From an uncultured bacterium (GTDB lineage Bacteria; Auribacterota; JACPWU01), in contig CAZXEQ010000002.1 of assembly GCA_964640155.1 (NCBI GenBank), positions 322,342 through 386,341 of the forward strand: a stretch of DNA of 64,000 nucleotides. The letters are read 5' to 3'. This document shows positions 7,063-63,802 of the stretch, piece by piece. The position numbers and the translations under genes are program-made. Position 1 is the stretch's first letter. Each line of letters starts with the position of its first letter. The notes beneath the pieces were generated by a model that worked only from the letters and a program-made list of their open reading frames with translations, ran no database searches and was not told the origin of the DNA.

Positions 7063-8781
7063 TTGAGATTTAAAATCAGTATATTTTTATCGATTTTTAT
7101 TTTAGGAGTTTTTACATTATCTATGGCCGAACCTTATTCTATTACTGCAAAAATAAAAATTTCTAAGAATGCTTTTCAAAAATATCTCAAGAGTCAGTCT
7201 GTATCTAGAGATGCCTATTCTGATTGGACGGATATGGATAAGAGCATCACCAAGGATTGGATAAAAGATATTAGAAAGAGCGAAGGGAAAGATTTGGATA
7301 AAGGTACAAATGCAGACTATTTTGCAGGAGTTTTGATCGATATTATCAATACACCACTTCAAGATATCTTTATATTTAAATATTTAGAAGAGGAGCAAAC
7401 TATTTTTTATTATCGCATGATCAATCATGATTGGTATGTGTTTGTAAGAAGCGAGTTGACAGCTCTTCGAGAAATTTCAAAGTACAAAGACATTGTAACA
7501 GAAGATATGGTTGTAATTTCTAATTATCCTTATGCAGATGGATTTAACAGCAATTTTGCTATTTTAAAAATATTCAAAGAGAAAAGTCATTTCATAAAAA
7601 ACGATACTTCTATTAAAGAAATAACCCGTTCATATGCATCTTCAATAGATGATTATTTTAATCAACTTGGTAAAAAATACAAAGATCCCAGTGTTGGAGA
7701 TTATTTTAAAGATAAAAAGTTTATTGAACCTATCATCAGGAATAGATATCTCTCATTATTAAAAAGAATAGAAAAAGAGGAAAAACCCTCAAAAATTGCG
7801 ACTGCAACTTCAGAAAAACCATTTTATCTTTGTGGTAATTTTTATACAGATGGGAAAAATGTTTATACTCATGCAGTTATCGAATATCGAATGGTAGAAA
7901 AAGTGGTCAAAGATGCAGATCCCTATAGCTTTAAGCCTTTAAAGGATAATTATTATATAGATAAAAATTTTGCTTATCATTTTTATCAAAAAATAGAAGG
8001 TAGTCACGGTCCGACTTTTAAGGTTTTACCTGGAACTGACGGTGTTTATTGTCTAGATAAAAATTATTTATATTACAGTGGTAACCTACTCAAAGATGTT
8101 GATGTCAAAAATTATAAATTGATTAAAAATGCCTTTGTTATTTCAGGCCATCACGTTTTTATTTATGGGGAAAAGGCAGATTTCTTGGATGGAGAAACTT
8201 TTGAAGTTTTGTCGTCATATTATTTCAAAGATAAAAAAGGTATCTATGGATTAAATGTTTATCCTCTCGATAAAGAATTGGTAAAAGATAGTCTTGAAAT
8301 TAAAGAGGCGGATAAAGAGACGTTTGAAGTTGTTTTTGATAATTTTGATACTGACTATGCTGGTGGAGAGCATTGTGCTTATGCCAAGGACAAAAATAAT
8401 GCGTATTTCAAAAATGCTGTTTTAAAAGGAATTGATCCTGAAAACTTTAATTATAAAGGTAAGGGATACTTGATTGATGGCCAGAATATCTATTACCTTA
8501 ATAAACGGATTCAAGGAAGTGATGCAAAGACGTTAGATATTGATTTGCCTTTCTATTTTGCCAAAGACAAAAACAAGGCTTATTACTGCGGAATAGAATT
8601 GCCGAATGTAGACATTAAAACGTTCAAAGTTTTGCCCAACAGCGCTTATGCCCGAGATAAAAACAAAATATATTATATGAGTAAAGCGATGGTAAATGTG
8701 GATATTGACTCCTTTGAAGTCGTTACTTGGAATCAGGCAAAAGATAAAAAATCAAAAATTTATATGGATGAAAGAATCTAA
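7063..8781 (+). CDS. DKNYY-repeat family protein, secreted
   Basis: 572 aa, signal-peptide-like N-terminus; repeated motifs YAKDKNNAYF, FAKDKNKAYY, YARDKNKIYY, LDKNYLYY. Confidence 0.6.
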   Translation: MRFKISIFLSIFILGVFTLSMAEPYSITAKIKISKNAFQKYLKSQSVSRDAYSDWTDMDKSITKDWIKDIRKSEGKDLDKGTNADYFAGVLIDIINTPLQDIFIFKYLEEEQTIFYYRMINHDWYVFVRSELTALREISKYKDIVTEDMVVISNYPYADGFNSNFAILKIFKEKSHFIKNDTSIKEITRSYASSIDDYFNQLGKKYKDPSVGDYFKDKKFIEPIIRNRYLSLLKRIEKEEKPSKIATATSEKPFYLCGNFYTDGKNVYTHAVIEYRMVEKVVKDADPYSFKPLKDNYYIDKNFAYHFYQKIEGSHGPTFKVLPGTDGVYCLDKNYLYYSGNLLKDVDVKNYKLIKNAFVISGHHVFIYGEKADFLDGETFEVLSSYYFKDKKGIYGLNVYPLDKELVKDSLEIKEADKETFEVVFDNFDTDYAGGEHCAYAKDKNNAYFKNAVLKGIDPENFNYKGKGYLIDGQNIYYLNKRIQGSDAKTLDIDLPFYFAKDKNKAYYCGIELPNVDIKTFKVLPNSAYARDKNKIYYMSKAMVNVDIDSFEVVTWNQAKDKKSKIYMDERI

Positions 8782-14282: not shown

Positions 14283-14371
14283 GGAGAGGTGGCTGAGTGG
14301 CCTAAAGCGACGGCTTGCTAAGCCGTTGTACTGTTAATTCAGTACCGGGGGTTCGAATCCCCCCCTCTCCG
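14283..14371 (+). tRNA. tRNA-Ser (anticodon GCU)
   Basis: Long variable arm, anticodon loop uuGCUaa, T-arm GGTTCGAATCC, acceptor ggagagg/cctctcc. Confidence 0.85.
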
Positions 14372-14445: not shown

Positions 14446-14564
14446 GGGAGGCCTGACATAGCATAATGCAAATCATGCACTGCATGATTTGCGACTGTTA
14501 GGAGGGCCGGGTGGCCGACCGGAGTGAGTGTAACGAACGTAGGCGCCGAATCCCCCCCTCTCCG
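14446..14564 (+). repeat. tRNA-downstream element copy 3
   Basis: GGGATTCGAAGGGAG start, internal hairpin (gcaaatcatgca/tgcatgatttgc), GGGTGGCCGACCGGAGTGA module, ends with cgaatccccccctctccgaagttta duplicating the tRNA-Ser(GCU) 3' end and flank. Confidence 0.5.
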
Positions 14565-44152: not shown

Positions 44153-44224
44153 GCTGGTGTAGCTCAACGGTAGAGCACCTGATTTGTAATCAGGCGGTTG
44201 CGGGTTCAAATCCCATCACCAGCT
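44153..44224 (+). tRNA. tRNA-Thr (anticodon UGU)
   Basis: gctggtgTAGCTCAACGGTAGAGC, anticodon loop uuUGUaa, T-loop TTCAAATCC; one apparent T-stem mismatch. Confidence 0.7.
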
Positions 44225-44277: not shown

Positions 44278-44412
44278 ATGGGAGGATTTGAAGGGAGCTC
44301 CGACGCCTTTATGATGCTGATCATGCGGTGCATGATCAGCGACGTCTAGTCGGAGCGGGTGGCCGACCGGAGTGAACGAAGTGAACATAGGCGCCAAATC
44401 CCATCACCAGCT
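44278..44412 (+). repeat. tRNA-downstream element copy 4
   Basis: GGGAGGATTTGAAGGGAG start, long hairpin (gctccgac...gatgctgatcatgc-ggt-gcatgatcagc...gtcggagc), GGGTGGCCGACCGGAGTGA module, ends with caaatcccatcaccagctgtt duplicating the tRNA-Thr 3' end. Confidence 0.5.
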
Positions 44413-44486: not shown

Positions 44487-45719
44487 ATGCAAATCACATT
44501 TATTTTTCTCTCTCTTATTCTAGGTGTTTTTTTGGGATTGGCTTTGGCAGGGCTTTTACGCTGGTTCAAAACGAGAACAGCTTATGAATTAGCAGAAGAA
44601 TTATATCGCCAGAATGAAACGATGAGAAAGAGTGAAGTGGGGGAACTCATTCAAAATCTAAAGGCGAATTTTGGCAGCCTCTCTCTTGAAGCTTTATCTA
44701 AGTCTACCGAAGAATTACTTAAACTTGCTCAATCTAAGTTTCAGTCTGAAAGAGAATCTTACACAAAAGATCTTGAAACAAAAAAAGGATTAATTGACCA
44801 ACAGCTGACGAACATGAATCAGGAATTGGAAAAAGTTACTGATTTGATGAAAACCTTGGAGAATGATCGTGTTCAAAAATTTGGACAATTAGAATCTCAG
44901 CTAAAAAATCAAAATGAACAAGTATCAAAATTATCTCAAACAGCACAAACTTTGAAAGAAGCCTTAGCCGGTACTAAAACCAGAGGACAATTAGGAGAGA
45001 AGCTTGCTGAAGATGTTTTGCGTTTGATGGGTTTTATCGAAAATGTCAATTATCAAAAACAACGCATGATTGAAACAGAGGGAACAAAACCAGATTTCAC
45101 GTTTCTTTTACCAAAAGATCTTAAACTTAACATGGATGTTAAATTCCCCTTAAGTAGTTACTTGAGGCATCTTGAAGCCCCGTCTAAAATAGAAAAAGAC
45201 CAGCATTTAGCGCAATTTTTGAAAGATGTTCGAGCTAGAGTCAAAGAGATTACGTCGCGTGATTATATTAATCCAGCGCAAAATACTTTAGATTACGTCC
45301 TTCTTTTTATCCCTAACGAGCAAGTTTATGCTTTTATTCAAGAGAACGATGCCAGCATTTTTGATGATGCTCTTAAAACCAAAGTTGTTTTTTGTTCTCC
45401 TTTAACGCTCTATGCCATTCTTGCTGTAATCCGGCAGGCCATTGATAATTTTGCTCTTGAGAAAGCATCTAAAGAAATGCTGTCTTTATTTGGAGCTTTT
45501 AGAAAGCAATGGACGGAATTCGTAAAGAAGATGGAAACCTTAGGTAAAAAAATTGATGATGCTCAAGAAACTTTTGCATCTTTGATGAGTACACGACAAA
45601 GAGAATTAGAAAAACCTCTCAATAAAATTGAAGAATTAAGAAAAGCAGAAGGTTTGCCTTTAGCGACAATCGAAGAGATAAAAGAACCTCTCTTACTATC
45701 AGAAGTAAAAGAGTCTTGA
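44487..45719 (+). CDS. rmuC: DNA recombination protein RmuC
   Basis: N-terminal TM, long coiled coil, C-terminal RmuC-type domain (TRGQLGEKLAEDVLRLMGF...). Confidence 0.75.
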   Translation: MQITFIFLSLILGVFLGLALAGLLRWFKTRTAYELAEELYRQNETMRKSEVGELIQNLKANFGSLSLEALSKSTEELLKLAQSKFQSERESYTKDLETKKGLIDQQLTNMNQELEKVTDLMKTLENDRVQKFGQLESQLKNQNEQVSKLSQTAQTLKEALAGTKTRGQLGEKLAEDVLRLMGFIENVNYQKQRMIETEGTKPDFTFLLPKDLKLNMDVKFPLSSYLRHLEAPSKIEKDQHLAQFLKDVRARVKEITSRDYINPAQNTLDYVLLFIPNEQVYAFIQENDASIFDDALKTKVVFCSPLTLYAILAVIRQAIDNFALEKASKEMLSLFGAFRKQWTEFVKKMETLGKKIDDAQETFASLMSTRQRELEKPLNKIEELRKAEGLPLATIEEIKEPLLLSEVKES

Positions 45720-46002
45720 AAGAACCGTACGTCTTTGAAAAATTATCTTGTCAAAAATAAGTGATTTAAGTTATAGTACCCCTACATGATTTAATTTTAA
45801 TCAAAGCTCTTAAGCGTAAAGAGCAGGTCGCTCTTTCTGCGTTTGGGTTTTGTTTTATTTTTACGGTTTAATTACAGTGTTCTGGCGTGAACCGCATCGT
45901 TTTCCTGTGGTGTTGCACTCCGGTAGAATCTGTAGCACAATCGGCAGTTGGATAATAGAACAGGGAATGCTTTATGTTTTTCCCTTGTTAATTTGGTATG
46001 CA

Positions 46003-46084
46003 GGGCAGGTACCAAAGCGGCCAACTGGGCCAGACTGTAAATCTGGTGGCTATGCCTACGAAGGTTCGAATCCTTCCCTGCCCA
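46003..46084 (+). tRNA. tRNA-Tyr (anticodon GUA)
   Basis: Acceptor gggcagg/cctgccc, D-arm CCAAAGCGGCCAACTGG, anticodon loop cuGUAaa, long variable arm, T-arm GAAGGTTCGAATCCTTC. Confidence 0.8.
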
Positions 46085-46174
46085 TAAAAGTAGGGTTTAG
46101 GGCATAGGGATAAGGGTTGAGAGATACGTTTTTCTCTAAACCCTAGACCCTATACGCTAAGTCCTGAGTTTAAT

Positions 46175-46245
46175 GCGGGAGTAGCTCAATGGTAGAGTTC
46201 CAGCCTTCCAAGCTGGCCATGCGGGTTCGATTCCCGTCTCCCGCT
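46175..46245 (+). tRNA. tRNA-Gly (anticodon UCC)
   Basis: gcgggagTAGCTCAATGGTAGAG, anticodon loop cuUCCaa, T-arm GGGTTCGATTCCCG. Confidence 0.85.
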
Positions 46246-46304
46246 CGAAAAACTCGAGCAGGTGAGACGAGATGTATAAGGTAATATAAGCCCTGATTTT
46301 AACT

Positions 46305-46377
46305 GCCGAGATAGCTCAGCCGGCAGAGCACGTCCTTGGTAAGGACGAGGCCACGGGTTCGATTCCCGTTCTCGGCT
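46305..46377 (+). tRNA. tRNA-Thr (anticodon GGU)
   Basis: gccgagaTAGCTCAGCCGGCAGAGC, anticodon loop uuGGUaa, T-arm CGGGTTCGATTCCCG. Confidence 0.85.
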
Positions 46378-46475: not shown

Positions 46476-47672
46476 ATGGCTAAGGAAAAATTTGAGAGAA
46501 AGAAACCACATGTAAACGTGGGAACGATTGGACACGTAGATCATGGTAAAACGACATTGACCGCAGCATTGACCAAAGTACTGTCAAAGAAGGGTCAAGC
46601 CAAAGAAATCACCTATGCCGACATCGCCAAAGGCGGAGTCGTGCGAGATGACTCAAAGATTGTAACCATTGCCGTATCACACGTAGAATACGAAAGCACC
46701 AATCGACACTATGCGCATATCGATTGTCCAGGACATGCCGACTATGTCAAAAACATGATCACTGGAGCAGCCCAAATGGATGGAGCCATTCTAGTGGTAA
46801 GTGCAACTGATGGACCCATGCCCCAAACAAGAGAACACATCTTATTGGCAAGGCAAGTCGGAGTACCTAACATCGTCGTATTCTTAAACAAATGTGACAC
46901 CGTAGATGATCCAGAACTATTAGACCTCGTAGAACTAGAAGTAAGAGAACTATTAACACAATATCAATTCCCCGGAGACAAAACTCCTATCGTCAGAGGA
47001 AGCGCATTAAAAGCACTACAGGGAGACACGAGCGAACTGGGAGAGCCATCCATTGCTAAACTACTAGAAGCATTGGACAGCTACATTCCAGAACCCAAAA
47101 GAGAAATCGACAAACCCTTCCTCATGCCCGTAGAAGACGTATTCAGCATCACTGGAAGAGGAACCGTAGCAACGGGAAGAATTGAAAGAGGCATCGTAAA
47201 AGTAGGAGAAACCCTAGAAGTCGTAGGACTCAAACCCACTAAAAACGTCGTCGTCACTGGAGTAGAAATGTTCCGAAAAGAACTAGACCAGGGACAAGCA
47301 GGAGACAACGTAGGAGCCTTGCTTAGAGGAGCAGAAAAAGACGACATCGAAAGAGGACAAGTCTTAGCGGCACCCGGAAGCATCAAGCCGCATACCAAAT
47401 TCAAAGCAGAAGTCTATGTCTTGAGCAAAGAAGAAGGAGGAAGGCACACACCCTTCTTCAATGGATACAGACCTCAATTCTACTTCAGAACAACGGATGT
47501 GACTGGAGTGGCGAACCTAGCAGGTGGAATAGAAATGGTAATGCCTGGAGACAACACGGCATTAGAAGTAGAGTTGATCAGTCCAATTGCAATGGACAAG
47601 GGCTTAAGATTTGCAATCCGAGAGGGAGGCAAGACCATCGGAGCAGGTAGAGTTACTGATATTATTGCGTAA
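46476..47672 (+). CDS. tuf: elongation factor Tu (copy 1)
   Basis: [11 protein letters not shown]1 motif, [12 protein letters not shown]; 398 aa; nucleotide-identical to copy at 62231-63427. Confidence 0.95.
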
Positions 47673-47722: not shown

Positions 47723-47872
47723 ATGAGAGAAATGATTATTCTCGCGTGCACGGAATGTAAAGACCGAAATTATTGTACTTATAAAAATAAGAAAACGACT
47801 CAAAATCGGTTAGAAAGAAATAAGTTTTGTAGACATTGCCGCAAGCATACGTTGCACAAGGAGACGAAGTAA
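47723..47872 (+). CDS. rpmG: 50S ribosomal protein L33
   Basis: 49-aa [52 protein letters not shown] with CxxC...CxxC zinc ribbon; not in the supplied ORF track; conserved position before secE-nusG. Confidence 0.8.
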
Positions 47873-47964: not shown

Positions 47965-48038
47965 AGGCCAGTAGCTCCAATGGCTAGAGCGGCGGTCTCC
48001 AAAACCGCATGTTGCAGGTTCAAGTCCTGCCTGGCCTG
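47965..48038 (+). tRNA. tRNA-Trp (anticodon CCA)
   Basis: aggccagTAGCTCCAATGGCTAGAGC, anticodon loop cuCCAaa, T-arm GCAGGTTCAAGTCCTGC. Confidence 0.85.
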
Positions 48039-48101: not shown

Positions 48102-48296
48102 ATGGCAAATCCTGTAAGAAAGTTAGCTAGTTTTTTTGTAGATGCACGACAGGAATTAAAAAAAGTGTCTTGGCCGACTTTAGATGAGTTAAGGGATTCA
48201 ACGATTGTTGTCATTGTTTCAATTGTCTTATTAGCAGCTTTTATTGGAGCAGTTGATTTTCTTTTATCAAAAGTGATTGAAGTTGTGATTCGTTAA
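48102..48296 (+). CDS. secE: preprotein translocase subunit SecE
   Basis: 64 aa, single C-terminal TM, ELKKVSWPT motif; conserved position upstream of nusG. Confidence 0.85.
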   Translation: MANPVRKLASFFVDARQELKKVSWPTLDELRDSTIVVIVSIVLLAAFIGAVDFLLSKVIEVVIR

Positions 48297-48318: not shown

Positions 48319-48846
48319 ATGGCACCTAAATGGTATGTAGTTCATACATTATCTGGTCAGGAAGCAAGAGTTAAAGAGCAACTAGATAAAAAGATTGCGA
48401 TGGAAGGCATTCAGGAAAAGATCACAAACGTCCTGGTCCCGATTGAAAATGTTTCTGAAATCCGATCAGGGAAGAAAAAAATTACAAAAAGAAAATTTTT
48501 CCCAGGATATATCCTTGTTGAAATGGATATGAATGATGATACCTGGTATTTAATAAAAAACACTCAAGGCGTGATTGGTTTTGTAGGTGCAGGAACTCCT
48601 GTCGCTTTGATGGAATCAGAAATTCAAAGCATTTTGAATCAGATTGAAGAGAAAAAAGAAAAGGTTAAACCCAAAGTTATTTTTGAAAAGGGTGAAGCGG
48701 TCAAAGTGAATGATGGTCCGTTCGTCAATTTTACAGGGACTGTCGAAGAATTAGATCCAGATCGAGGCAAGCTTAAAGTCATGGTTTCTATTTTTGGAAG
48801 AGCAACTCCAGTTGAGCTTGAATATTGGCAGGTGGAGAGATCTTAA
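48319..48846 (+). CDS. nusG: transcription termination/antitermination factor NusG
   Basis: WYVVHT.SGQE NGN-domain start and C-terminal KOW motif (GEAVKVNDGPF). Confidence 0.92.
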   Translation: MAPKWYVVHTLSGQEARVKEQLDKKIAMEGIQEKITNVLVPIENVSEIRSGKKKITKRKFFPGYILVEMDMNDDTWYLIKNTQGVIGFVGAGTPVALMESEIQSILNQIEEKKEKVKPKVIFEKGEAVKVNDGPFVNFTGTVEELDPDRGKLKVMVSIFGRATPVELEYWQVERS

Positions 48847-48891: not shown

Positions 48892-49317
48892 ATGGCAAAA
48901 AAAGTAACGGCATTGATTAAATTACAAGTTTCAGCAGGTCAAGCAAATCCTGCTCCTCCGATTGGTCCAGCCTTGGGTCAGCATGGAGTTAATATTATGG
49001 AGTTTTGCAAACAGTTTAATGCAAAAACTCAAGATAAAGCAGGATTGGTGATTCCTGTTGTGATCACTGTTTTTCAGGATAGAACATTTACTTTTATCAT
49101 GAAATCACCCCCTGTTGCTACGCTTCTGAAGCGAGCGGTCGGGATTGCAGTTGCATCTGGAAAACCTAACAAAGAAAAAGTAGGGAAAGTGACCTTAGCT
49201 CAGGTAAAAGAAATCGTGAAGCAGAAAATGGAAGATTTGAATACCAAGAGTGAAGATGCTGCAATGAAAATGGTCATGGGGACGGCTCGAAGTATGGGCA
49301 TTGATATTGCAAGTTAA
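48892..49317 (+). CDS. rplK: 50S ribosomal protein L11
   Basis: [28 protein letters not shown] signature. Confidence 0.93.
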
Positions 49318-49343
49318 ACATACCCAAAGTTAGAAGGTTCTTT

Positions 49344-50048
49344 ATGAAGACACATTCGAAAAGATTTGAAGCAGGAAAAAAATTGGTTGATTCAGAAAAA
49401 TTATACTCTGTTGCAGAAAGCGTTTCTGTATTGAAAAGTTTTCCAAAAACAAAGTTTGATGAGACAGTAGATTTATCTATTAAATTGGGCGTAGATCCTA
49501 AGCAAACAGATCAACAAGTCCGTGGTACTGTTTCCCTTCCTCATGGAACGGGGAAAAAAGTACGTGTGGTTGTTTTTGCAAAAGGTGAATCAGCCAAACT
49601 TGCAAAGGAAGCAGGAGCAGACCATGTAGGGTTAGACGATTTGGTAGAAAAGATTAATAAAGGTTGGTTTGACTTTGATGTGGTGATTGCTTCTCCAGAA
49701 ACCATGAGAGAAGTAGGAAAGCTTGGAAAAGTATTAGGTCCTAAGGGATTGATGCCAAGCCCAAAGACGGGAACAGTTACCCTTGATGTTGACAAAGCTG
49801 TTAAGGAAGTTAAAGCCGGACGTGTTGAGTTTAAAATGGATAAAAGTGGAAATTTACATTTACCGATTGGAAAAATTTCTTTTGAAGAAAAAGCTTTGGT
49901 TGAAAATGCTTCTGCCGTTTTAGATGCGGTTTATCGATCAAAGCCTTCCACAAGCAAAGGTAGTTTTATGGAAGGGTGTACCATTTCGTCAACCATGAGT
50001 CCGGGAGTTCGCATTCGTACGAGAGGTGGTGAGTCAGATGAGGCCTGA
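49344..50048 (+). CDS. rplA: 50S ribosomal protein L1
   Basis: L1 family sequence ([16 protein letters not shown]...[13 protein letters not shown]). Confidence 0.93.
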
Positions 50049-50571
50049 GAAAGTTTGGATAGTCGATAACCTTAAAAGTGTTTCTAAAGATAAGCCTGTT
50101 ATCGTTTTAACAGACTACACGGGTGTTTCTGCAATTGCGCTTGGAAAACTCAGGGCGCGTTTGAAAGAAGTTTCCGGATCTTATCTTGTTGTTAAAAATC
50201 GTTTGTTTAGATTCGCAGCTAAGGAAGTTTTAGGAGAGGAATCTGTTACAAAAGTTTCTGGGTCTACCGGAGTGGCTTACAGTGACGATCCTGTGAGTCT
50301 TGCTAAAGTCTTGAAAGATTTTTCATCTGAAAATGAAGCTTTCAAGTTGAAAATGGGCTTCTTAAAAAATCGTGTTTTGGATAAGGCTCAAATACTAGAG
50401 CTTTCAAAAATTCCATCCAAGCCGGTTTTAATTGCTCAACTGCTTGGGATTCTCAAGCGCCCCATGTCAGATTTAGTATACGTCTTGAAATCACAAATTT
50501 CAGGCTTGGCCATTGCATTAGAGGCCATTAAGGAACAAAAACAAAAGGCCGAACAAAATAAGGCTTCATAA
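50038..50571 (+). CDS. rplJ: 50S ribosomal protein L10
   Basis: L10 family; conserved rplA-rplJ-rplL order; start ambiguous between 50026 and 50038. Confidence 0.85.
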   Translation: MRPEKVWIVDNLKSVSKDKPVIVLTDYTGVSAIALGKLRARLKEVSGSYLVVKNRLFRFAAKEVLGEESVTKVSGSTGVAYSDDPVSLAKVLKDFSSENEAFKLKMGFLKNRVLDKAQILELSKIPSKPVLIAQLLGILKRPMSDLVYVLKSQISGLAIALEAIKEQKQKAEQNKAS

Positions 50572-50631
50572 AGATAAATCTATAAAAAAGAAAACAATCA
50601 AGATAAAGAAAGAATATAGGAGGAAGAAAAC

Positions 50632-51012
50632 ATGCAACAAATGATCGAGCAAATCGAAAAAATGACAGTATTAGAGCTTTCAGAGTTAGTGAAGGCTTTG
50701 GAGCAAAAGTTTGGTGTAACAGCTCAAGCCCCAGTCATGGGCGTTGCTGTCGCAGGTGCCGCTGGTCAAGCAGGTGGTGCAGCAGCTGCAGTAGAAGAGA
50801 AAACAGAGTTCACTGTTATTCTTGCCAATGCTGGCGATAAGAAAATCAATGTCATTAAAGAAGTAAGAGCCATTACAGGATTAGGCTTAAAAGAAGCGAA
50901 AGATTTAGTTGAGGGAGCTCCAAAACCATTGAAGGAAGGCGTTGCCAAGAAAGAAGCTGAAGAGATCAAGGCAAAGCTTGAAGCTCAGGGTGCAAAGATC
51001 GAACTCAAGTAA
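50632..51012 (+). CDS. rplL: 50S ribosomal protein L7/L12
   Basis: Ala-rich hinge, C-terminal domain [24 protein letters not shown]. Confidence 0.93.
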
Positions 51013-51212
51013 TCTAGAGTTTTTAAAGACGAGTTTTGAATACAGAAATTAAGAATCATTCATAAGAAGAAGTGGTTCGTATGTTGGATTAAGTTGTTTT
51101 GATTAAACAATATACGAGTCCCCAATCTGCTGCCCTCCAGGTCAGATGATTAATCTGTAGGCTCAAAAACTTTAAGACTGACGACTCGCGACTTTTATTA
51201 TAAAGGAAGGTT

Positions 51213-54200
51213 ATGGCCACAAAAACAAAGACAGAGTTAGGGGAATTTGAAGGGAAGAATATTCAAGAGATTTTAGAGCTTCCTAATTTAATTCAAATTC
51301 AAACAAAATCTTATTATGACTTTTTGCAGGCGGAGGTTTTGCCTGAAGAGCGTGAAAATGTTGGACTTCATGCTGTTTTTAATGAAGTTTTCCCAATTCA
51401 AAGTTACGATGAAAACTTGTCTTTGGAATATCTAGGATATTCTTTAGGGGCTCCTAAATATGACATTCTTGAGTCTCAGAGAAGAGGCCTTACCTATTCA
51501 GCTCCTTTGAATGTTACTTTCCGGTTAAAAGAAGGTGACACTGTTAAAGAAGAAACCGTTTATATGGGCAATATCCCCTTAATGACGGATACAGGTACTT
51601 TTATTATCAACGGTGCTGAACGTGTTATTGTCAGTCAGTTGCATCGTTCTCCAGGTGTTTTCTTCGAGCATGAAATCCATGCTGGAGGAATGACTTTATA
51701 TGTCGCTCGTATTATTCCTTATCGTGGAACGTGGATTGAATCCCAATTTGATATTAATGACGTCATTTATGTCTATATGGATAGGCAGAAGAGACGACGA
51801 AAAATTTTAGCAACAGCATTCTTGAGAGCTTTAGGGTATTCCTCAGACAAAGATATTTTGTCTCTTTTCTATGAAGTTGAAGAAGTCAATATTGATAAGA
51901 AGCTCGATCCTTCGACCATTAAAAATCGAATTCTTGCTGATTCTGTGGTTGAGACAAGTACAGGGGCAGTGATTGAAAAAGCAGGTCACAAAGTTTCCAA
52001 AGCCTTGCTTGATAAAATGGATATGTTAGGTCTTAAGAAGCTTTCATTATTAAAAGATGCAGCAGAAGAAGATCCTATGATTAAGATGATTGTGCGTGAT
52101 GCGACAGATTCTACAGATGCTGCTTTAAAAGAAATTTATCGCAGACTGCGACCCGGAGATCCTCCGACTGTTTCTAATGCTAGAACTTTGATTAAAAGGC
52201 TTTTCTTTGATTCAAAGCGCTATGATTTGGGCCGCGTAGGGCGATATAAATTAAATCAACGTCTGGGTCTTTCCATGACGGATGCGCGTCTTCGTAATAC
52301 AGTTCTTGAAAAAGAAGATGTGGTTGAGTCCCTTCGGTATTTGCTTGATTTACGAAAAGGAAAAGGCCAAACGGATGATATTGATCATTTAGGAAATCGT
52401 CGTATTCGTTCCGTAGGCGAGCTTTTGATGAATCAATGTCGTGTAGGTTTAGCAAGAATGGAAAGAGTGATTCGTGAAAGAATGAATCTTTTTGACTCAG
52501 AGGCAGAAATGTTGACGCCTCATAAATTATTGAATCCAAAAGGTCTTTCCGGTGTGATCCGTGATTTCTTTGGTCGCAGTCAGCTTTCTCAATTTTTAGA
52601 TCAAACCAATCCTTTGGCTGAGCTAACGCATAAGCGTCGTCTTTCAGCTCTTGGACCAGGCGGGTTGAATCGAGATCGTGCAGGATTTGAAGTCCGTGAC
52701 GTTCACACCAGTCATTATGGGCGTATTTGTCCTATTGAAACACCTGAAGGTCCAAACATTGGACTTATTTCATCTTTGTCCACTTACGCTAGAATCAATG
52801 ATTATGGGTTTCTTGAAACGCCCTATCGAAAAGTAGTGGATGGTTGTGTGACGGATAAAATTGTTCATGTCACTGCAGATTTGGAAGAAAATAATGTAAT
52901 CGCTCAGGCCAGTGCGAAATTGGATGAAAAAGGGCGCTTTCTGGAAGAATGGGTTCAGGTTCGCCATAAAGGTGAATTCATGAAAGTAGAACCTGCTCGA
53001 GTCGATTATATGGACGTGTCACCTCTTCAGTTGGTGAGTGTGGCTGCAGGGTTGATTCCTTTCTTGGAACATGATGATGCAAACCGAGCTTTGATGGGAT
53101 CGAACATGCAACGTCAGGGAGTTCCTCTTCTTTCAACAGAAGCTCCTCTTGTTTCAACAGGATTAGAACATCGTGCTGCGAAGGATTCGGGGGTTGTGGT
53201 TGTTGCTCGTAATTCTGGTGAAGTTACCTATTCAGATTCTTCTGAGATTGTGATTGGAGATCAAGTTCACCCTCTTAAGAAATTCTTAAGGTCTAATGCA
53301 GGTACAACGGTGAATCAGAGACCTTTGGTTAAAAAAGGTGACAAGGTTAAAGCGGGACAAGTGATTGCAGACGGTATGGCGACAAAAGGTGGGCATTTGG
53401 CTTTGGGGCGAAATGTGTTGGTCGCCTTTATGCCATGGGAAGGATATAACTTTGAAGATGCTATTTTGATCAGTCAAAGATTGGTCAAAGAAGATGTATA
53501 CACCTCTATTCATATTGAGGAATTTGAAATTGGAGCTCGCGATACTAAGTTAGGTAAAGAAGAAATTACCCGTGATATTCCCAATGTCGGTGAAGAAGCC
53601 TTAAAAAATCTTGGCGAAGACGGCATCATTCGCATTGGTGCTGAAGTAAAGCCAGGGGATGTTTTGGTTGGAAAAATCACACCCAAAAGTGAAACAGAAC
53701 TTTCTCCAGAAGAGCGCTTGCTCAGAGCCATTTTCGGCGAAAAAGCGGCAGATGTAAGAGACACTTCTTTGAGAGTGCCCAGCGGTACTGAAGGCATTGT
53801 TATTGATGTGAAAGTATTTTCCAGAAAAGAAAAAGCTGCTGGGGATGAAGAACAGGCCGAAGAGAGATCCAAAGTTCGTCGCTTGAATGATGATTATCGT
53901 AAGAAATGTGCAGATTTGAAGAAAACGGCTTTTACTAAAATTCGCGATATTTTGTTAGATGTTAAATTGGCAGTGGATATTGTCAATTCTGAAACAGGCG
54001 AAATTGTAATTCCTCGTAACAACAAAGTTAGTAAAGCCATGCTCGATAAATTAGAAGAGATGGAATATGAATCAATCGAGATGGAAAAATGTGTTGAGCG
54101 AGATAGAATGAAAATGGCTCTTTGGGAATATCGCAATAGCTTAGATGCTGTTCAAACCATTCATAGCATGGAAATTGAGAAATTGAAAAAAGGCGACGAG

Positions 54201-54944
54201 CTTGAACCCGGCGTGATTAAGAAAGTAAAGGCATATGTTGCAACTAAACGAAAGCTTTCTGTCGGTGATAAAATGGCCGGTCGTCATGGAAATAAAGGTG
54301 TTATTGCAAAAGTAATTCCTGAAGAAGATATGCCATTTTTGGCAGATGGAACACCCGTAGATATGGTGTTGAATCCTTTGGGTGTGCCCTCCAGAATGAA
54401 CGTGGGACAGGTTATGGAAACCCATTTGGGAATTGTTGCTAGAACATTAGGAATGAAAATTGTGTCTCCTGTGTTTAGAGGTATTAAAGATGCTGATATC
54501 CGTGCTTTGTTAAAACAAGCAGGTTATCCTGAAACTGGCAAAATGATTCTTTATGATGGAAGAACAGGAGAGTCTTTTGATCAAGATGTCGTAGTGGGAT
54601 ATATTTATATGTTGAAGTTGGCTCATTTGGCAGCAGATAAGATTCATGCCAGAGCCATTGGTCCTTACTCTTTGGTGACACAACAGCCTTTGGGTGGTAA
54701 AGCCCAATTTGGTGGCCAGAGATTTGGAGAAATGGAAGTTTGGGCTTTAGAGGCCTATGGAGCAGCTTATACATTGCAGGAAATTTTGACAGTTAAATCT
54801 GATGATGTGGCAGGTCGAACCAGGATGTATGAATCCATTGTCAAAGGACAAAATGTATTAGAAGCTGGAACTCCAGAATCATTTAATGTTTTGGTGAAAG
54901 AAATCCAAAGTCTTGCTTTGGATATTCGGGCCGAAAAAGACTAA
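51213..54944 (+). CDS. rpoB: DNA-directed RNA polymerase subunit beta
   Basis: 1243 aa with conserved beta-subunit blocks (e.g. [18 protein letters not shown]; NMQRQ). Confidence 0.97.
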
Positions 54945-54972
54945 CAGCTCAGGCGACTTCTTAATAAGGAGA

Positions 54973-57900
54973 ATGAATCAAATGTCAGAACTAGATTTAG
55001 AGAAAAAAGCAATATTGGGTTTCGATGAAGGTCCTTTGTTCAGCAAGATTTCTATTCGTCTTGCCCCAGGGGAAATAATTAAAGAATGGTCAAAAGGAGA
55101 AGTAAAAAATCCAGAGACCATTAATTATCGTACTTTCAAGCCTGAAAAAGGTGGTCTTTTCTGTGAAAGAATTTTTGGTCCTACCAAAGATTGGGAATGC
55201 AGTTGCGGTAAATACAAAAGAATTAAACACAAGGGCGTGGTGTGCGATCGTTGCGGTGTAGAAGTCACACAAGCTCGTGTAAGACGTGAACGTATGGGGC
55301 ATATTGAACTTGCGGCTCCTGTGGCGCATATTTGGTTTTTTAAAGCGATGCCGAGTCGTATCGGTAATATGTTAGGTATTTCTACGCGATCTTTGGAAAG
55401 AGTTCTTTACTATGAAGATCATATTGTGACAGATCCTGGAAATACTGCTTTAGAGCTTCAACAACTTTTAACGGAATCTGAATATCGTCAAGCACAAGAA
55501 ACGTATGGTAAGGGTTTTACTGCTAAGATGGGTGCAGAGGCTATTAAAGAACTTTTGAAAAAAATTGATCTTTCAAAGCTTGCGACTCAATTAAGAGCAG
55601 AGCTGAAGAAAACAAAAAGTCAGCAAGCGAAGAAAAAAATCAGCAAACGCTTGAAGATTGTCGAAGGTTTTCGTAGATCAGCCAATAAACCAGATTCAAT
55701 GATTTTAGATGTGGTTCCTGTGATCCCGCCTGATTTAAGACCTTTAGTTCCTTTAGAAGGCGGTCGTTTTGCTACGTCTGATTTGAATGATCTCTATCGA
55801 CGTGTGATTAACCGAAATAATCGTCTGAAAACCATTTTGCAATTAAAAACGCCGGATGTTATTGTTCGCAATGAAAAGCGCATGCTTCAGGAAGCAGTGG
55901 ATGCTCTTTTTGATAATGGAAGACATGGGCGTCCTGTGTTGGGTTCAGGAAATCGTCCTTTAAAATCATTGGCAGAAATGCTGAAGGGTAAACAGGGGCG
56001 TTTTAGGCAAAACTTACTCGGTAAACGTGTGGATTATTCAGGCCGTGCGGTTATTGTGGTGGGCCCTGAATTGAAGCTTCATCAATGTGGACTCCCAAAG
56101 AAAATGGCTTTAGAGCTTTTTGAGCCTTTTATCATTCGTCATTTAAAAGATTTGGGGCATGTTCATACGATTCGAAGTGCAAAAAAAATGATTGAGTCGG
56201 GTGCGCCCGAAGTATGGGATATTTTGGAAACAGTGACGAAGGACCATCCGGTTCTTTTGAATCGAGCTCCAACGCTGCATCGTTTGGGAATTCAAGCTTT
56301 TGAGCCTGTCCTTGTTGAGGGAGAAGCGATTCGTGTTCATCCTCTTGTTTGTACAGCCTTTAATGCTGACTTTGATGGTGACCAGATGGCGGTTCACGTG
56401 CCTCTTTCTGTTGAAGCTCAGTTGGAAGCGCGTTTGCTGATGCTTTCATCCAATAATGTGTTTTCTCCTTCAAGTGGAAAACCCGTTTTAACACCTACGC
56501 AGGATATTATTTTGGGTTGTTATTATTTAACGAAGAGTCCACGCCCAAATTCTAAAGTGACAAAATCATTTTCAAGTGTGGATGAAGTGATGTTGGCCTA
56601 TTCAGAAAAAGTCATTAAAATTCATGATTTGATTAAAATCCGTATTGATGGCAAATCGATTGAGACCACATGTGGACGTGCAATTTTCAACGAAAGTTTG
56701 CCCAAAGAGTTATGGTTTGTGAATCATGAAATTGATAAAAAAGCCCTTTCTAAGTTGATCATCCGTTGTTATGAAAAAGTAGGGCATCAACGAACGATTG
56801 AAACTTTGGATCGCCTTAAACAGTTGGGTTTCCATTCTGCGACGAAGGCCGGTATTTCTATTTCAGTGTCCGACATGATGATTCCAAAAGAGAAAGATGG
56901 AATTATTCAAGCTGCGCACAAAGAAGTTGAAAAAGTTGAAAAGCAATATCGTGCAGGGTCTATCACAGAAGGTGAACGTTATAATAAAATTATTGATATT
57001 TGGACACATGCGACCGATGGTATTTCTGAAGCCTTGTTTAGAGGCCTTGAAGATAATCGTGAGAATAGAGGTATTAATCCTCTCTTTATCATGGTGGATT
57101 CAGGCGCCAGAGGTTCTAAACAACAGATTCGTCAGCTTTCAGGAATGCGTGGTTTGATGGCGAAGCCTTCAGGAGAAATTATTGAAAGCCCCATTACATC
57201 AAACTTTAAAGAAGGCTTGAGCGTGTTGGAATACTTTATTTCAACGCACGGAGCTCGTAAAGGTCTTGCCGATACAGCCTTGAAAACAGCCGATTCAGGC
57301 TATTTAACGCGTCGATTGGTGGATGTCGGACAAGATGTCATTATTACTGAGATGGATTGCCGAACATTGAATGGAATTGAAGCTCGTCCTATTTTTGAAG
57401 GTGACGAAGAAATGGTCACTTTGCGCGAAAGAATTTTTGGACGCGTAAGTTTGGATGATGTATTTAATCCTATTACCAAAGAAGCGGTGGTTCATGCCGA
57501 TGAAGAAATAAATGAAAAAGCTTGTGAGAATGTTGAGAAAATGGGTCTTGAAAAACTCAGAATCCGATCTGTTTTAACTTGTGAGTCTCTTCGAGGAATT
57601 TGTGCCAAATGTTATGGTCGAAATCTTTCAACAGGAAAGCTTGTGGATCTTGGAGTTGCAGCGGGAATTATAGCAGCCCAATCGATTGGAGAGCCTGGAA
57701 CGCAGTTGACCATGAGAACGTTCCATATCGGTGGAACGGCCAGTCAGATTTTTAAACAACCCCAGATTGCTGCAAAAAATGACGGGACTTTGCGTTATAA
57801 CGAAGCCAAAGTCGTTGTTAATAAAGAAGGCAATCACATTGTTCTAAATAAAACAGGAACGGTGTCTGTTGATAGTGACGATGGACGAGAGCTTGAGAAG

Positions 57901-59046
57901 CATACTTTAGTCGTGGGTGCTGTGGTTAGCATTCCTCCTGGAGGTAAGGTGAAGAAGGGGGAGATCTTTATTCGATGGGATCCATACAATATTCCTATTT
58001 TGACAGAACAATCAGGTTATATTCGATTCCACGATATTATTGAAGGTTCCACCATGAAAAAAGATCTTGATCAATCCACGGGATTGATCGGGACGATCAT
58101 CATGGAGCACAAAGAAGATCTACATCCTCAAATTATCGTAACTGATAAGGATGGAAAAGAAATTTACGGATATTATTCTATTCCAGCTGGAGCTCACGTT
58201 GTAGTGAGTGAAGGGGATCATGTTGAGGGAGGAAGTTTATTAGCAAAAACACCTCGAAAAGTTTCAAAAACAAAAGATATCACTGGAGGTCTTCCACGTG
58301 TGGCTGAACTTTTTGAAGCGCGTCGTCCTAAAGATGCCTCTGAAATTGCAAAAATTGATGGAGTTGTGGAATTCAGAGGAACGTTCAAAGGTAAGCGTTT
58401 ATTAATAGTGAAGGATGAAATTACAGGTATTGAAGAGGAGCATCTTATTCCTCACAAGAAACATTTGACAGTTTATAAAGGGGATCGTGTTAAGAAAGGC
58501 CAGCAATTAACGGAAGGCCCAATTGTTCCTCAAGAAATATTACAAGTGTGCGGACCAAAAGAATTGCAAGAATATCTGGTCAATCAGATCCAAGAAGTGT
58601 ATCGTCTTCAGGGAGTTGAAATTAACGATAAGCATATTGAAATTATTATTCGTCAGATGCTGAGAAAGGTTTCAATTACAGATCCAGGAGATACGGATTT
58701 TCTTTTCAATGAACAAATTGATAAAATCCGTTTTCGACAAGAAAATGAACGCGTGATTAAGAATGGTGGAACGCCTGCAGAGGCTTCTCCTCTTCTCTTG
58801 GGAATTACCAAAGCTTCATTAACAACAGAGAGCTTTATTTCGGCAGCATCGTTCCAAGAAACAACACGTGTCTTGACGGAAGCCGCTTCAGAGGGCAAAA
58901 TAGATTATTTACGCGGGTTTAAAGAGAATGTCATCATGGGACATCTTATCCCGGCTGGAACAGGCGCTACGACATATCGCGATATTAAAGTTGTTAAAGG
59001 TAAGTCAGAAGAGCTTGCGATATTAGAAGAGTCTGGAAAAATATGA
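54973..59046 (+). CDS. rpoC: DNA-directed RNA polymerase subunit beta'
   Basis: Zinc-binding CxxC region, [12 protein letters not shown] catalytic motif; start placed at ATG after AAGGAG RBS rather than the overlapping upstream Met. Confidence 0.95.
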
Positions 59047-59067
59047 AATTGATGATAGGGAGTTTTT

Positions 59068-59457
59068 ATGCCAACAATTAATCAATTGGTAAGAAAAGGG
59101 CGTCGTAAGCCTGTGTATCGAAGTAAAAGTCCTGCTCTTGTGGGTTCTCCTCAAAGACGAGGGGTATGTTTGGTTGTTAAAACGATGACACCTAAAAAGC
59201 CAAACTCAGCACTTCGTAAAATTGCTCGTGTACGTTTAAGCAATGGTCAAGAAGTGACGGCCTATATTCCGGGCATCGGACATAATTTACAAGAACACTC
59301 GATTGTTTTAGTTCGTGGAGGACGTGTCAAAGATTTACCAGGTGTTCGTTATCATATTGTACGAGGAACATTGGATGCTCAAGGCGTTGCGAATCGTGGT
59401 CAAGGTCGCAGCAAGTACGGAGCTAAGGTTCCTAAGCAATCCGAAAAGAAAGCGTAA
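59068..59457 (+). CDS. rpsL: 30S ribosomal protein S12
   Basis: [12 protein letters not shown] start, [10 protein letters not shown] motif. Confidence 0.96.
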
Positions 59458-59469
59458 AAGGATAGAGTC

Positions 59470-59937
59470 ATGAGAAGAAGACAGGCGATTAAAAGAAAAT
59501 CATCACCCGACATTCGTTATGGCAGCTTAGCTGTGACAAGATTTATTAATACGATTTTACGATGCGGGAAAAGAAGTTTGGCAGAACGTATTTTTTATAA
59601 CGCTCTCTCGAAAGTAAGCGAGAAGGTTGGGAAGCCTCCGATGGATGTTCTTGAAAAGGCTTTGAATCACGTGAAGCCTATCATTGAAACAAAGTCGCGA
59701 AGAGTGGGCGGTGCTACGTATCAAGTGCCCGTTGAAATTACTCCTGAGCGCCAGATTGCATTGGCCAGTCGTTGGATTATTGATTATGCAAAAGATCGTA
59801 AAGGTGTGGCCATGGAAGATGCTTTGGTTCAAGAGTTAGTAGATGCTTACAACAATACAGGTGCGGCTCTCAAGAAAAGAGAAGATACGCATAAAATGGC
59901 AGAATCCAATCGGGCTTTTGCTCATTATAGATGGTAA
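59470..59937 (+). CDS. rpsG: 30S ribosomal protein S7
   Basis: S7 family sequence; conserved rpsL-rpsG order. Confidence 0.95.
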   Translation: MRRRQAIKRKSSPDIRYGSLAVTRFINTILRCGKRSLAERIFYNALSKVSEKVGKPPMDVLEKALNHVKPIIETKSRRVGGATYQVPVEITPERQIALASRWIIDYAKDRKGVAMEDALVQELVDAYNNTGAALKKREDTHKMAESNRAFAHYRW

Positions 59938-59969
59938 TTTAAACAAAGCTTAAAGGTTCAGAAAAAGTT

Positions 59970-60083
59970 ATGAAAGTAAGAGCTTCGATTAAAAGATTAT
60001 GTGTGAAATGCAAAATTGTTCGTCGTAAAGGACGACTTTATATTATTTGTTCGGATTCTCGACACAAACAAAGACAAGGATAA
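59970..60083 (+). CDS. rpmJ: ribosomal protein L36-like (zinc-ribbon type)
   Basis: 37-aa [40 protein letters not shown] matching the L36 pattern (C-x2-C...C...H); not in the supplied ORF track; unusual position between rpsG and fusA. Confidence 0.7.
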
Positions 60084-60124
60084 ATTAATCCGAAAATAAA
60101 AATTTGGATTTTAAAAGAGATTTT

Positions 60125-62194
60125 ATGGCAAGAGAATACCCTTTAGAAAAAACAAGAAATATTGGAATTTCTGCGCATATTGATGCAGGTAAAACCACGA
60201 CGACAGAACGTATCCTCTTTTATACTGGAAAAGTTCATAAAATTGGAGAAGTTCATGATGGTGCAGCTACCATGGATTGGATGCCTCAGGAGCAAGAACG
60301 AGGTATTACGATTACGGCTGCTTGTACAACCTGCTTTTGGAGAGGAATGCGTGTTAATATTATTGATACGCCAGGACATGTGGACTTCACGATGGAAGTT
60401 GAAAGATCTTTGCGTGTTTTGGATGGAGCTGTGATTGTTTTTTGTGGCGTTGGAGGTGTAGAGCCTCAATCTGAAACGGTTTGGCGTCAGGCGGAACGTT
60501 ATGTCGTTCCACGTATTACTTTTGTTAACAAAATGGATCGTATTGGTGCAGATTTTTTTACTGCAGTAGCTGAGATGAAAGAAAAATTAGGAGCGCATGC
60601 TGTTCCTATTCAAATTCCCTTGGGATCCGAAGACCAATTAAAAGGCGTGATTGATCTTGTTAAAATGAAGGCCATTGTTTTTGATGAAGAATCAAAAGGT
60701 CAAAAATTTGAAGAAGTTGAAATCCCAGCAGAGTATGCAGAAAAGGCTAAAGAATGGCATCACAAGTTGATTGAAGGTTTGGCTGAAAACGACGAAGCTA
60801 TTTTAGAACAGTTCATTGAAGGAAAAGAGCCAACGATTCCAGAGATCAAAGCATCGATTCGAAAAAGTTGTATTGCTGTAAAATTATTTCCAGTAGTGTG
60901 TGGCTCTGCTTTTAAAAACAAAGGTGTTCAGCAAATGTTGGATGCTGTCATTGACTATCTTCCAAGTCCCTTGGATAAACCTCCTGTCATAGGGAAAGAT
61001 CCTGTGACGCATGCAGAAATAGAAAGAAGTACTGGGGATGAAAAACCTCTCTCTGCTTTGGCTTTTAAAATTATGAGTGATCCCTTTGTAGGAAAATTAA
61101 CTTATTTTAGAGTTTATTCAGGCGTTCTTTCCAAAGGTTCTTATGTTTATAACAGTGTAACAGGTCGTAAAGAAAGAATTGGAAGACTTTTAAGAATGCA
61201 TGCGAATCATCGCGAAGACATCGATGAGGTTGGTTCTGGAGATATTGCAGCTGCGGTGGGTATTAAAGAAACACTGACAGGTCAGACTATTTGTGATGAA
61301 GAAAATCAGGTTATTTTAGAATCGATGCATTTCCCAGAACCTGTTATTTCTATGGCCATTGAGCCAAAGACGCAAGCGGATCGCGACAAGCTTTCTATTG
61401 CTTTAGGACGTTTATCTGAAGAAGATCCAACTTTTAGGGTGACTTCGAATCCAGAAACAGGTCAAACCATTATCAGTGGAATGGGAGAGCTTCATTTGGA
61501 TGTTTTAAGAGACAGAATGTTTAGAGAATTTAAGGTTGAGGCCAATGTTGGCGCTCCTCAAGTCGCTTATCGTGAAACCATTGAGAAGCCTGCAGAAGCT
61601 GAAGGAAAATATATTCGACAAACGGGAGGTCGTGGACAGTATGGACATGTCTATGTTGAAATTGAACCTCTTGAGCGTGGCAAGGGTCTTGAATTTGTTG
61701 ACAAAATTGTAGGAGGCGTTGTTCCTCGAGAATATATTTCTTCCGTTGAGACCGGTATCGTCAACGCTGCAAAAGGCGGAATTCTTGGTGGATATCCAGT
61801 GGTAGACCTTCAAGTAAGATTGGTGGATGGTTCTTATCATGAAGTGGATTCGTCAGATATTGCATTCCAAATTGCAGGTTCATACGCTTTTAAAGATGCA
61901 GTCAAAAAGGCATCCCCGATTCTTCTAGAACCCATTATGAAAGTAGATGTGCTTACGCCTGAAGATTATATGGGAGATATTATTGGAGATTTAAACTCCA
62001 GACGTGGACGTATCAATGATATTGAAACTCGTACGAAGAGCAAAGTAGTTCATGCGGATGTTCCTTTGTCTGAAATGTTCGGATATGCGACAGCAATACG
62101 GTCCTTGACAAAGGGACGTGCAAGTTATTCAATGGAGCCCAGTCATTTTGAAAAGGTTCCCAGAAATATTTCTGAAAAGGTGTTAGCAAAATAA
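60125..62194 (+). CDS. fusA: elongation factor G
   Basis: [13 protein letters not shown]1 motif and five-domain EF-G architecture; start set at ATG (MAREYP) rather than the upstream TTG used by the ORF track. Confidence 0.95.
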
Positions 62195-62230: not shown

Positions 62231-63427
62231 ATGGCTAAGGAAAAATTTGAGAGAAAGAAACCACATGTAAACGTGGGAACGATTGGACACGTAGATCATG
62301 GTAAAACGACATTGACCGCAGCATTGACCAAAGTACTGTCAAAGAAGGGTCAAGCCAAAGAAATCACCTATGCCGACATCGCCAAAGGCGGAGTCGTGCG
62401 AGATGACTCAAAGATTGTAACCATTGCCGTATCACACGTAGAATACGAAAGCACCAATCGACACTATGCGCATATCGATTGTCCAGGACATGCCGACTAT
62501 GTCAAAAACATGATCACTGGAGCAGCCCAAATGGATGGAGCCATTCTAGTGGTAAGTGCAACTGATGGACCCATGCCCCAAACAAGAGAACACATCTTAT
62601 TGGCAAGGCAAGTCGGAGTACCTAACATCGTCGTATTCTTAAACAAATGTGACACCGTAGATGATCCAGAACTATTAGACCTCGTAGAACTAGAAGTAAG
62701 AGAACTATTAACACAATATCAATTCCCCGGAGACAAAACTCCTATCGTCAGAGGAAGCGCATTAAAAGCACTACAGGGAGACACGAGCGAACTGGGAGAG
62801 CCATCCATTGCTAAACTACTAGAAGCATTGGACAGCTACATTCCAGAACCCAAAAGAGAAATCGACAAACCCTTCCTCATGCCCGTAGAAGACGTATTCA
62901 GCATCACTGGAAGAGGAACCGTAGCAACGGGAAGAATTGAAAGAGGCATCGTAAAAGTAGGAGAAACCCTAGAAGTCGTAGGACTCAAACCCACTAAAAA
63001 CGTCGTCGTCACTGGAGTAGAAATGTTCCGAAAAGAACTAGACCAGGGACAAGCAGGAGACAACGTAGGAGCCTTGCTTAGAGGAGCAGAAAAAGACGAC
63101 ATCGAAAGAGGACAAGTCTTAGCGGCACCCGGAAGCATCAAGCCGCATACCAAATTCAAAGCAGAAGTCTATGTCTTGAGCAAAGAAGAAGGAGGAAGGC
63201 ACACACCCTTCTTCAATGGATACAGACCTCAATTCTACTTCAGAACAACGGATGTGACTGGAGTGGCGAACCTAGCAGGTGGAATAGAAATGGTAATGCC
63301 TGGAGACAACACGGCATTAGAAGTAGAGTTGATCAGTCCAATTGCAATGGACAAGGGCTTAAGATTTGCAATCCGAGAGGGAGGCAAGACCATCGGAGCA
63401 GGTAGAGTTACTGATATTATTGCGTAA
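62231..63427 (+). CDS. tuf: elongation factor Tu (copy 2)
   Basis: Identical in nucleotide sequence to 46476-47672 as far as I can read it; canonical fusA-tuf-rpsJ position. Confidence 0.95.
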
Positions 63428-63499: not shown

Positions 63500-63802
63500 A
63501 TGCAAAGGATTAGAATTAAGCTTAGAGGATATGATCAAAGAGTTTTAGATCAATCAACAACTGAGATTGTAGATACGGCAAAGAGAACGGGTGCTTCTAT
63601 TAAAGGCCCCATTCCGTTACCTACTCAGATCGAGAGATTTACTGTTTTAAGATCTCCTCATGTGGATAAAAAATCTAGAGAACAGTTTGAGATTCGAACG
63701 CATAAACGGCTTTTGGATATTGTAGATCCGACGGCAAAAACAATTGATGAGTTGAAAAGGTTGAATTTGCCAGCCGGAGTTGATATCAATATTAAGCTCT
63801 AA
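63500..63802 (+). CDS. rpsJ: 30S ribosomal protein S10
   Basis: [12 protein letters not shown]...[14 protein letters not shown]10 signature. Confidence 0.95.

Follow-up and report, generated by a model that had tools for sequence, protein, structure and literature searches.

Two identical tuf genes in the tufB-secE-rpoBC-str-S10 cluster of an uncultured bacterium: a probable case of ancient paralogs homogenised by gene conversion

We analysed a 64,000-nt stretch of DNA from an uncultured bacterium, hereafter the window, which carries two tuf genes that are identical from start to stop codon and stand in unrelated surroundings. The best explanation, to which we assign a probability of about 0.9, is that the two genes are ancient tufA/tufB paralogs homogenised by recombination-driven gene conversion. 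The pair is a textbook tufA/tufB case of a kind already known, and its biological payoff is accordingly small: it adds one more instance of the best-documented long-lasting concerted evolution in bacteria. It widens the taxonomic range of tuf concerted evolution and leaves the concept unchanged, as the clade concerned, probably Omnitrophota/PVC judging by the switch-I region of its EF-Tu, is absent from PMC6053082. The consequence for assembly is more practical. At exactly the start and stop codons of tuf, the repeat breaks or misjoins contigs of short-read metagenomes, and the resulting tRNA-tuf-rpsJ and fusA-tuf-rpmG chimeras span the ribosomal-protein/RNA-polymerase marker-gene cluster. Such misjoins are relevant to the quality control of metagenome-assembled genomes (MAGs), to synteny analyses and to the use of tuf and its neighbours as phylogenetic markers.

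The two tuf copies and their gene neighbourhood

An exact string search of the 64-kb window located the two copies on the same strand, as direct repeats with a start-to-start spacing of 15,755 bp and no differences over 1,197 nt. The original prediction had described a base-for-base match over 1197 bp; the search agreed and extended the maximal exact repeat to 1,198 bp, with no bases in common 5' of the ATG and a single one (A) past the TAA. The extra base corresponds to a 1-in-4 chance expectation and is meaningless; a chance origin of the 1,198-nt exact match is impossible. The flanks had also been called unrelated. When the comparison was extended into them, the ungapped identity over the next 20-200 nt was 25-40% upstream and 24-30% downstream, which is the random level. 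Both copies are intact, full-length ORFs that encode an EF-Tu of 398 aa, scoring 706 bits against TIGR00485 (cut-off 522) and 731 bits against NF009372. The features of the two loci and of the DNA between them are as follows.

44153-44224, tRNA-Thr(tgt), further upstream of copy 1 (ARAGORN, Rfam)
46003..46377, + strand, tRNA-Tyr(gta), tRNA-Gly(tcc) and tRNA-Thr(ggt), directly 5' of copy 1 (ARAGORN, Rfam)
46476..47672, + strand, tuf copy 1 (tufB-type), encoding the 398-aa EF-Tu; the exact repeat reaches 47673
47723-47872, + strand, rpmG, 3' of copy 1 (translation)
47965-48038, + strand, tRNA-Trp (ARAGORN)
48102-48296, + strand, secE (SecE TIGR00964, above cut-off)
48319-48846, + strand, nusG (NusG TIGR00922, above cut-off)
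48892..60000, + strand, block of rplK, rplA, rplJ, rplL, rpoB, rpoC, rpsL and rpsG between the tuf repeats
51213-54944, + strand, rpoB (size, gene order and Pfam labels on the identical contig L214)
54913-59046, + strand, rpoC with a mechanical start (size, order and L214 Pfam labels)
59068-59457, + strand, rpsL (NCBIfam S12)
59470-59937, + strand, rpsG (NCBIfam S7)
60104..62194, + strand, fusA (EF-G), immediately 5' of copy 2 (ORF and translation; mechanical TTG start at 60104)
62231..63427, + strand, tuf copy 2 (tufA-type), the final gene of the str operon; the exact repeat reaches 63428
63500..63802, + strand, rpsJ (S10), the first gene of the S10 operon (NF001861/TIGR01049, above cut-off)

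Within the block between the repeats, rplK and rplA were identified by NCBIfam L11 and L1 matches, and rplJ and rplL were assigned from their size, their order and the Pfam labels on L214. A homologous fusA-tuf arrangement with Pfam EF-G domains is present on contigs L085 and L088 of relatives. The true start of fusA is likely the ATG at 60125 (MAREYPLEK), 21 nt past the TTG, and the TTG start of rpoC, which overlaps the end of rpoB by 32 nt, is probably not the true one.

Copy 1 thus lies in the canonical tufB context, tRNA-Tyr/Gly/Thr-tuf-rpmG-tRNA-Trp-secE-nusG, and copy 2 in the canonical tufA context, rpsL-rpsG-fusA-tuf-rpsJ. The placement of the copies in the original prediction, the first after tRNA-Tyr, tRNA-Gly and tRNA-Thr(ggt) and the second after fusA, was correct. 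As direct repeats, the copies bracket ∼14.6 kb of essential genes, and the window is an undisrupted tufB-secE-rpoBC-str-S10 supercluster. This cluster has been reconstructed as ancestral (PMC6735719, PMC8046335). The window has the same gene order and orientation as the reconstruction, with both tuf genes in one contiguous cluster, and rpmG belongs to the secE operon, an arrangement also inferred for the ancestor of the proteobacteria. It differs in that its organism is not a proteobacterium and in that an RmuC-like gene splits the tRNA set.

The latter is an ORF of 410 aa at 44487-45719 that matched NF007686 with E = 1.4e-22, under the family cut-off. It separates tRNA-Thr(tgt) from tRNA-Tyr and so interrupts the Thr-Tyr-Gly-Thr series of tRNAs that is conserved in the tufB operon. 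When the surroundings of both tuf copies were scanned for promoters and terminators, match counts were close to those of shuffled sequence; one promoter-like site lies at 45748-45777, 5' of tRNA-Tyr. The Rfam scan returned tRNAs only.

Both contexts are the same as those of E. coli and Salmonella, thrU-tyrU-glyT-thrT-tufB-secE and rpsL-rpsG-fusA-tufA, and the Thr-Tyr-Gly-Thr tRNA set of the window equals thrU-tyrU-glyT-thrT. Unlike in those species, rpmG and tRNA-Trp lie between tuf and secE in the window. A comparison of tufA with tufB in E. coli K-12 gave 13 differences over 1,185 positions, of which eight fall within the first 135 nt and three within the last 20. Outside these two genes, the match continues for 0 nt upstream and 2 nt downstream, and flank identity is 26-27%. 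In both organisms, then, homology is confined to the coding sequence (0/2 nt beyond it in E. coli, 0/1 nt in the window) and the flanks are at random level. By contrast, the copies of E. coli and Salmonella diverge mostly at the gene edges, whereas those of the window diverge nowhere.

Repeat junctions in short-read assemblies

Evidence on the junctions between repeat and flanks was obtained from exact-protein look-ups, which led to short-read Logan contigs from other sequencing runs that were compared with the window. All four junctions are present in other Logan assemblies, possibly including that of the source sample of the window's assembly. The junction from the tRNA flank into tuf occurs on L001, that from tuf into rpsJ on L001 and L003, that from tuf into the rpmG flank on L002 and L214, and that from fusA into tuf on L002, L090 and L091. 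The original prediction had considered that there might be a single tuf locus; the four junctions in other assemblies effectively exclude this.

Several contigs delimit the repeat. L004, recorded in three samples, is exactly 1,198 nt long and consists of the tuf repeat alone. L003 begins exactly at the ATG and continues into the rpsJ flank. L214, which is from the sample of L004, begins exactly 30 nt inside the 3' end of the repeat and matches the rpmG-secE-nusG side of the window over 4,203 nt with no mismatches. The 30-nt overlap fits k-1 if the graph k was 31, as we assume. Together, L004 and L214 are the graph signature of one common node with two exits.

Two further contigs connect the flanks in the wrong combination: L001 (2.2 kb) joins the tRNA flank via tuf to the rpsJ flank, and L002 (1.5 kb) joins the fusA flank to the rpmG-side flank. 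They are reciprocal chimeras of the window's species. The hazard of assembly collapse or misjoin that had been raised for this repeat therefore actually occurs; in addition, five other contigs (L003, L004, L090, L091 and L214) have breaks that coincide with the boundaries of the repeat. In the wider clade, contig ends fall 0-7 nt from the tuf start or stop on L093, L097, L104 (1,206 nt), L124, L129, L198 and L208. In this respect tuf resembles the rRNA operons, which are a classic cause of assembly breaks and are likewise translation genes that occur in several copies, are strongly expressed and are held uniform through conversion within the genome. The rRNA operons differ in being non-coding, ∼5 kb long and usually present in more than two copies.

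L001 and L002 might instead be real structural variants, namely junctions of tandem duplications or deletions that formed when the direct tuf repeats crossed over unequally and that some members of the population carry. Repeats of 1.2 kb in direct orientation lend themselves well to unequal exchange, and swapped contexts are frequent among the short-read contigs of the clade (11 tRNA-tuf-rpsJ and three fusA-tuf-rpmG). However, the deletion junction loses rpoBC and ribosomal protein genes, which is lethal, and L001 and L002 are so short that a missing graph branch would look alike. Moreover, the swapped contig L123 in sample Ga0302242 is accompanied by an orphan fusA-side contig, L100, and the swapped type occurs once in 80 species-representative reference genome contigs among the matches listed. 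We consider real structural variants to be improbable. The same low likelihood attaches to the idea that recombination between the tuf repeats allows the 15.7-kb transcription/translation block to be amplified in tandem and reversibly. If amplification were to take place, L002 from the window's species and L107, L148 and L199 from relatives would be real duplication junctions in natural populations.

The identity of the copies could also be an artefact of assembly or polishing, in which a single tuf was placed twice or slightly different copies were polished to identity. An exact repeat of 1.2 kb exceeds short reads and is a classic site of error, the chimeras L001 and L002 show that assemblers err at tuf, and bubble-popping (in Logan) or polishing may hide one to a few SNPs between the copies. 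Nevertheless, 4/4 junctions were recovered from other assemblies, the repeat-only contig L004 and the k-1 start of L214 form the signature of a shared node, and both loci occupy the canonical positions that would be expected. The interpretation would stand even with a few hidden SNPs. The one-locus artefact is rejected, and an artefact of either kind is very improbable.

Age of the two loci and concerted evolution of tuf

To place the two loci in a wider clade, metagenomes were searched with degenerate probes. A narrow, clade-specific DNA probe returned no loci from the JGI metagenomes though the pattern was valid; near relatives are not in that collection. A broader probe for the clade-specific switch-I peptide yielded 120 metagenome loci, whose contexts were counted from same-strand neighbours within 1.5 kb of tuf.

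tRNA-tuf-rpmG, 25 loci of 120
fusA-tuf-rpsJ, 11 loci of 120
fusA-tRNA-Thr-tuf-rpsJ, 3 loci of 120
swapped, tRNA-tuf-rpsJ, 11 loci of 120
swapped, fusA-tuf-rpmG, 3 loci of 120

Within one organism of the clade, the tuf genes of L134 (tuf-rpmG) and L174 (fusA-tuf-rpsJ) differ at one of 1,206 nt, and their identity reaches 17 nt upstream and 0 nt downstream of the gene. In sample Ga0302242, the orphan fusA-side contig matches the swapped contig from exactly the ATG onward. A less uniform pair comes from sample Ga0209211, in which L115 (fusA-tuf, partial) and L146 (tRNA-tuf-rpmG) are 97.4% identical. All of their 21 mismatches over 802 nt are at third positions; none is in the first 161 nt and eight are clustered in nt 400-500. 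If L115 and L146 are paralogs from a single genome, this distribution would reflect conversion tracts that covered part of the gene, and homogenisation would be incomplete in some members of the clade. On L096 (tuf at 6584-7789), L122, L197 and L185, fusA and tuf have tRNA-Thr(ggt) between them, as though the upstream tRNA had once belonged to the unit that was transferred from one locus to the other.

More distant genomes were surveyed by a search with the whole EF-Tu protein, in which the relatives among the matches listed had at most 77% identity. Among the 80 in the matches listed, 34 had the tRNA-tuf-rpmG/secE context, 28 the fusA-tuf-rpsJ context and one a swapped context. The occurrence of both contexts in distant genomes and in the window's own EF-Tu clade indicates that the two loci long predate the window's species. 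Near-identity bounded by the coding sequence is the rule at every depth examined, and the loci are old.

A sister species is represented by L090 and L091, from two further samples. Its tuf differs from that of the window at 113 of 1,198 nt (9.4%); 105 of these 113 changes are at third codon positions and only four amino acids are altered. The fusA flank is diverged by ∼7% (77/1,096 and 45/685 nt, respectively). Both contigs end exactly 1 nt past the tuf stop, which is the repeat boundary of the window, and from these ends in two samples we infer that the sister species also has a tRNA-side tuf locus. An exact-protein look-up of RpmG, aimed at that locus, found the protein not to be on record. 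If the loci are older than the split from the sister species, ∼100 differences between the paralogs would be expected under independent evolution; the window has none.

A close strain is represented by L002, whose tuf carries two synonymous changes, C453T and A1092G. At both sites the base of the sister species is that of the window, which places the origin of the changes in the lineage of L002. They lie on a contig that is joined to flanks of both loci, and this suggests, on what is a chimeric contig, that new substitutions spread to both tuf copies.

More distant are L085, L086 and L088, longer contigs with ∼90% amino-acid identity that run unbroken through fusA-tuf-rpsJ; these organisms may be without an identical second tuf copy. 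The tuf gene of L085 differs from that of the window at 296 of 1,197 nt. In L088, tuf (5408-6584) is split into calls of 352 aa and 45 aa by an apparent frameshift, which is probably a sequencing or assembly error in this older JGI assembly. P0003 and P0004, from a single ENA sample, are further ∼90% relatives whose contigs measure 1.6-1.8 kb. P0006, P0007 and P0008 (L087, L089), which had high bit scores, were tried as close relatives and dropped: these longer EF-Tu variants have 475-491 aa, a canonical switch-I and 70-73% identity.

Overall, the paralogs of the window differ at 0/1,197 positions, as against 113/1,198 to the sister species and 296/1,197 to L085, which is the pattern of concerted evolution. 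The window is in this like tuf across bacteria, for which Wang & Chen 2018 (PMC6053082), and Lathe & Bork 2001 as cited in the literature, describe paralogs that are closer to each other than are orthologs between species. As in PMC6053082, the copies can be told apart by genomic context alone. Concerted evolution of tuf has been found in 6 phyla, 29 orders and 221 species, and was explained by a duplication of ancient date with subsequent conversion and with losses in particular lineages (PMC6053082).

The original prediction had offered recent duplication or ongoing gene conversion for the pair. The second part is supported by the ancient contexts, by the 9.4% divergence between orthologs versus none between paralogs, and by homology that ends at the CDS edges as in E. 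coli; the first part did not hold. A recent segmental duplication, in which tuf was copied too recently for substitutions to accumulate and no conversion took place, would account for 0 differences over 1,198 bp and could draw on the unbroken L085, L086 and L088, which might have only one identical copy, but it is very improbable: it gives no reason for ends at the ATG and at stop+1, where arbitrary ends and copied flanking DNA are expected; the second copy would have landed exactly in the conserved tufB slot, with tRNA-Thr(ggt) on one side and rpmG on the other, where dozens of distant lineages have a tuf; the sister, 9.4% diverged, breaks at the identical stop+1 boundary; other members of the clade have both contexts with near-identical tuf genes; and E. 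coli, in which the duplication is known to be ancient, has equally CDS-bounded homology.

Experimental evidence for non-reciprocal, recA-dependent transfer between tuf copies is known only from Salmonella and E. coli (PMC5485169). According to PMC6735719, which cites Abdulkarim & Hughes 1996, tuf genes evolve in concert via homologous recombination. In the double-strand-break repair model, the intact paralog is copied once RecBCD has processed the break and RecA has mediated strand invasion, and the Salmonella version of the model assumes that conversion tracts stop at the ends of the repeat (PMC5485169). Conversion of tuf is rare, at about once per 10^5-10^6 generations; its rate is greatly reduced in recA strains, and mismatch repair makes conversion less frequent and its tracts shorter (PMC5485169).

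We infer the mechanism at the window's tuf genes by analogy with this work in Salmonella and E. coli. Homologous recombination of the RecA type, in the course of break repair, would copy non-reciprocally from one tuf into the other. A new substitution would in this way either be erased or come to be present in both copies. As a conversion tract requires homologous sequence on each side, it would be unable to enter the long-diverged flanks, which would explain why identity ends at the start codon and just past the stop. A selective advantage of uniform EF-Tu at high expression probably contributes. As the window pair has no divergence even at its edges, the last homogenising event would have been recent or would have spanned the whole gene.

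The geometry of the window differs from that of Salmonella. There, the tuf copies are inverted and ∼760 kb apart, and exchange leads to inversions (PMC6735719, PMC5485169). In the window, they are direct repeats 15.7 kb apart, and a reciprocal exchange would leave the essential rpoBC block either lost or doubled. Products that have lost it should thus not last, and with direct repeats only conversion or transient duplications should be seen.

EF-Tu switch-I and other repeats of the window

Residues ∼47-72 of the window's EF-Tu form a non-canonical switch-I/effector region in place of the usual IDxAPEEKARGITINTxHVEY. Among the matches listed, this type of switch-I is common to Omnitrophota-labelled proteins, one Verrucomicrobiae MAG and one Bdellovibrionota MAG. 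Planctomycetota-, Holophagales- and Thermoanaerobaculia-labelled proteins carry another variant, VAKASESQGRRDPxKILTIATSHVEY, again among the matches listed.

The window also contains two other kinds of repeat. The first is a GC-rich interspersed element of ∼120 nt, present in seven copies between 22029 and 43486, in a region of ∼39% GC.

Starts of the ∼120-nt GC-rich element: 22029, 30880, 31630, 35901, 39032, 40475, 43353

Five copies are intergenic, and those at 31630 and 35901 lie inside long minus-strand mechanical ORFs. According to RNAalifold, the element would fold into a long imperfect hairpin of 29 pairs, six of them with compensatory changes, at -32 kcal/mol. It had no Rfam match at the gathering threshold, and it looks like a REP/MITE-like or structured RNA family. 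The second is a 92-nt direct repeat (14463-14554 and 44311-44402) with 77% identity between its copies and short palindromes inside. Its copies lie ∼90 nt downstream of tRNA-Ser(gct) (14283-14371) and tRNA-Thr(tgt), respectively, and the repeat could be an integration-site remnant or a small RNA.
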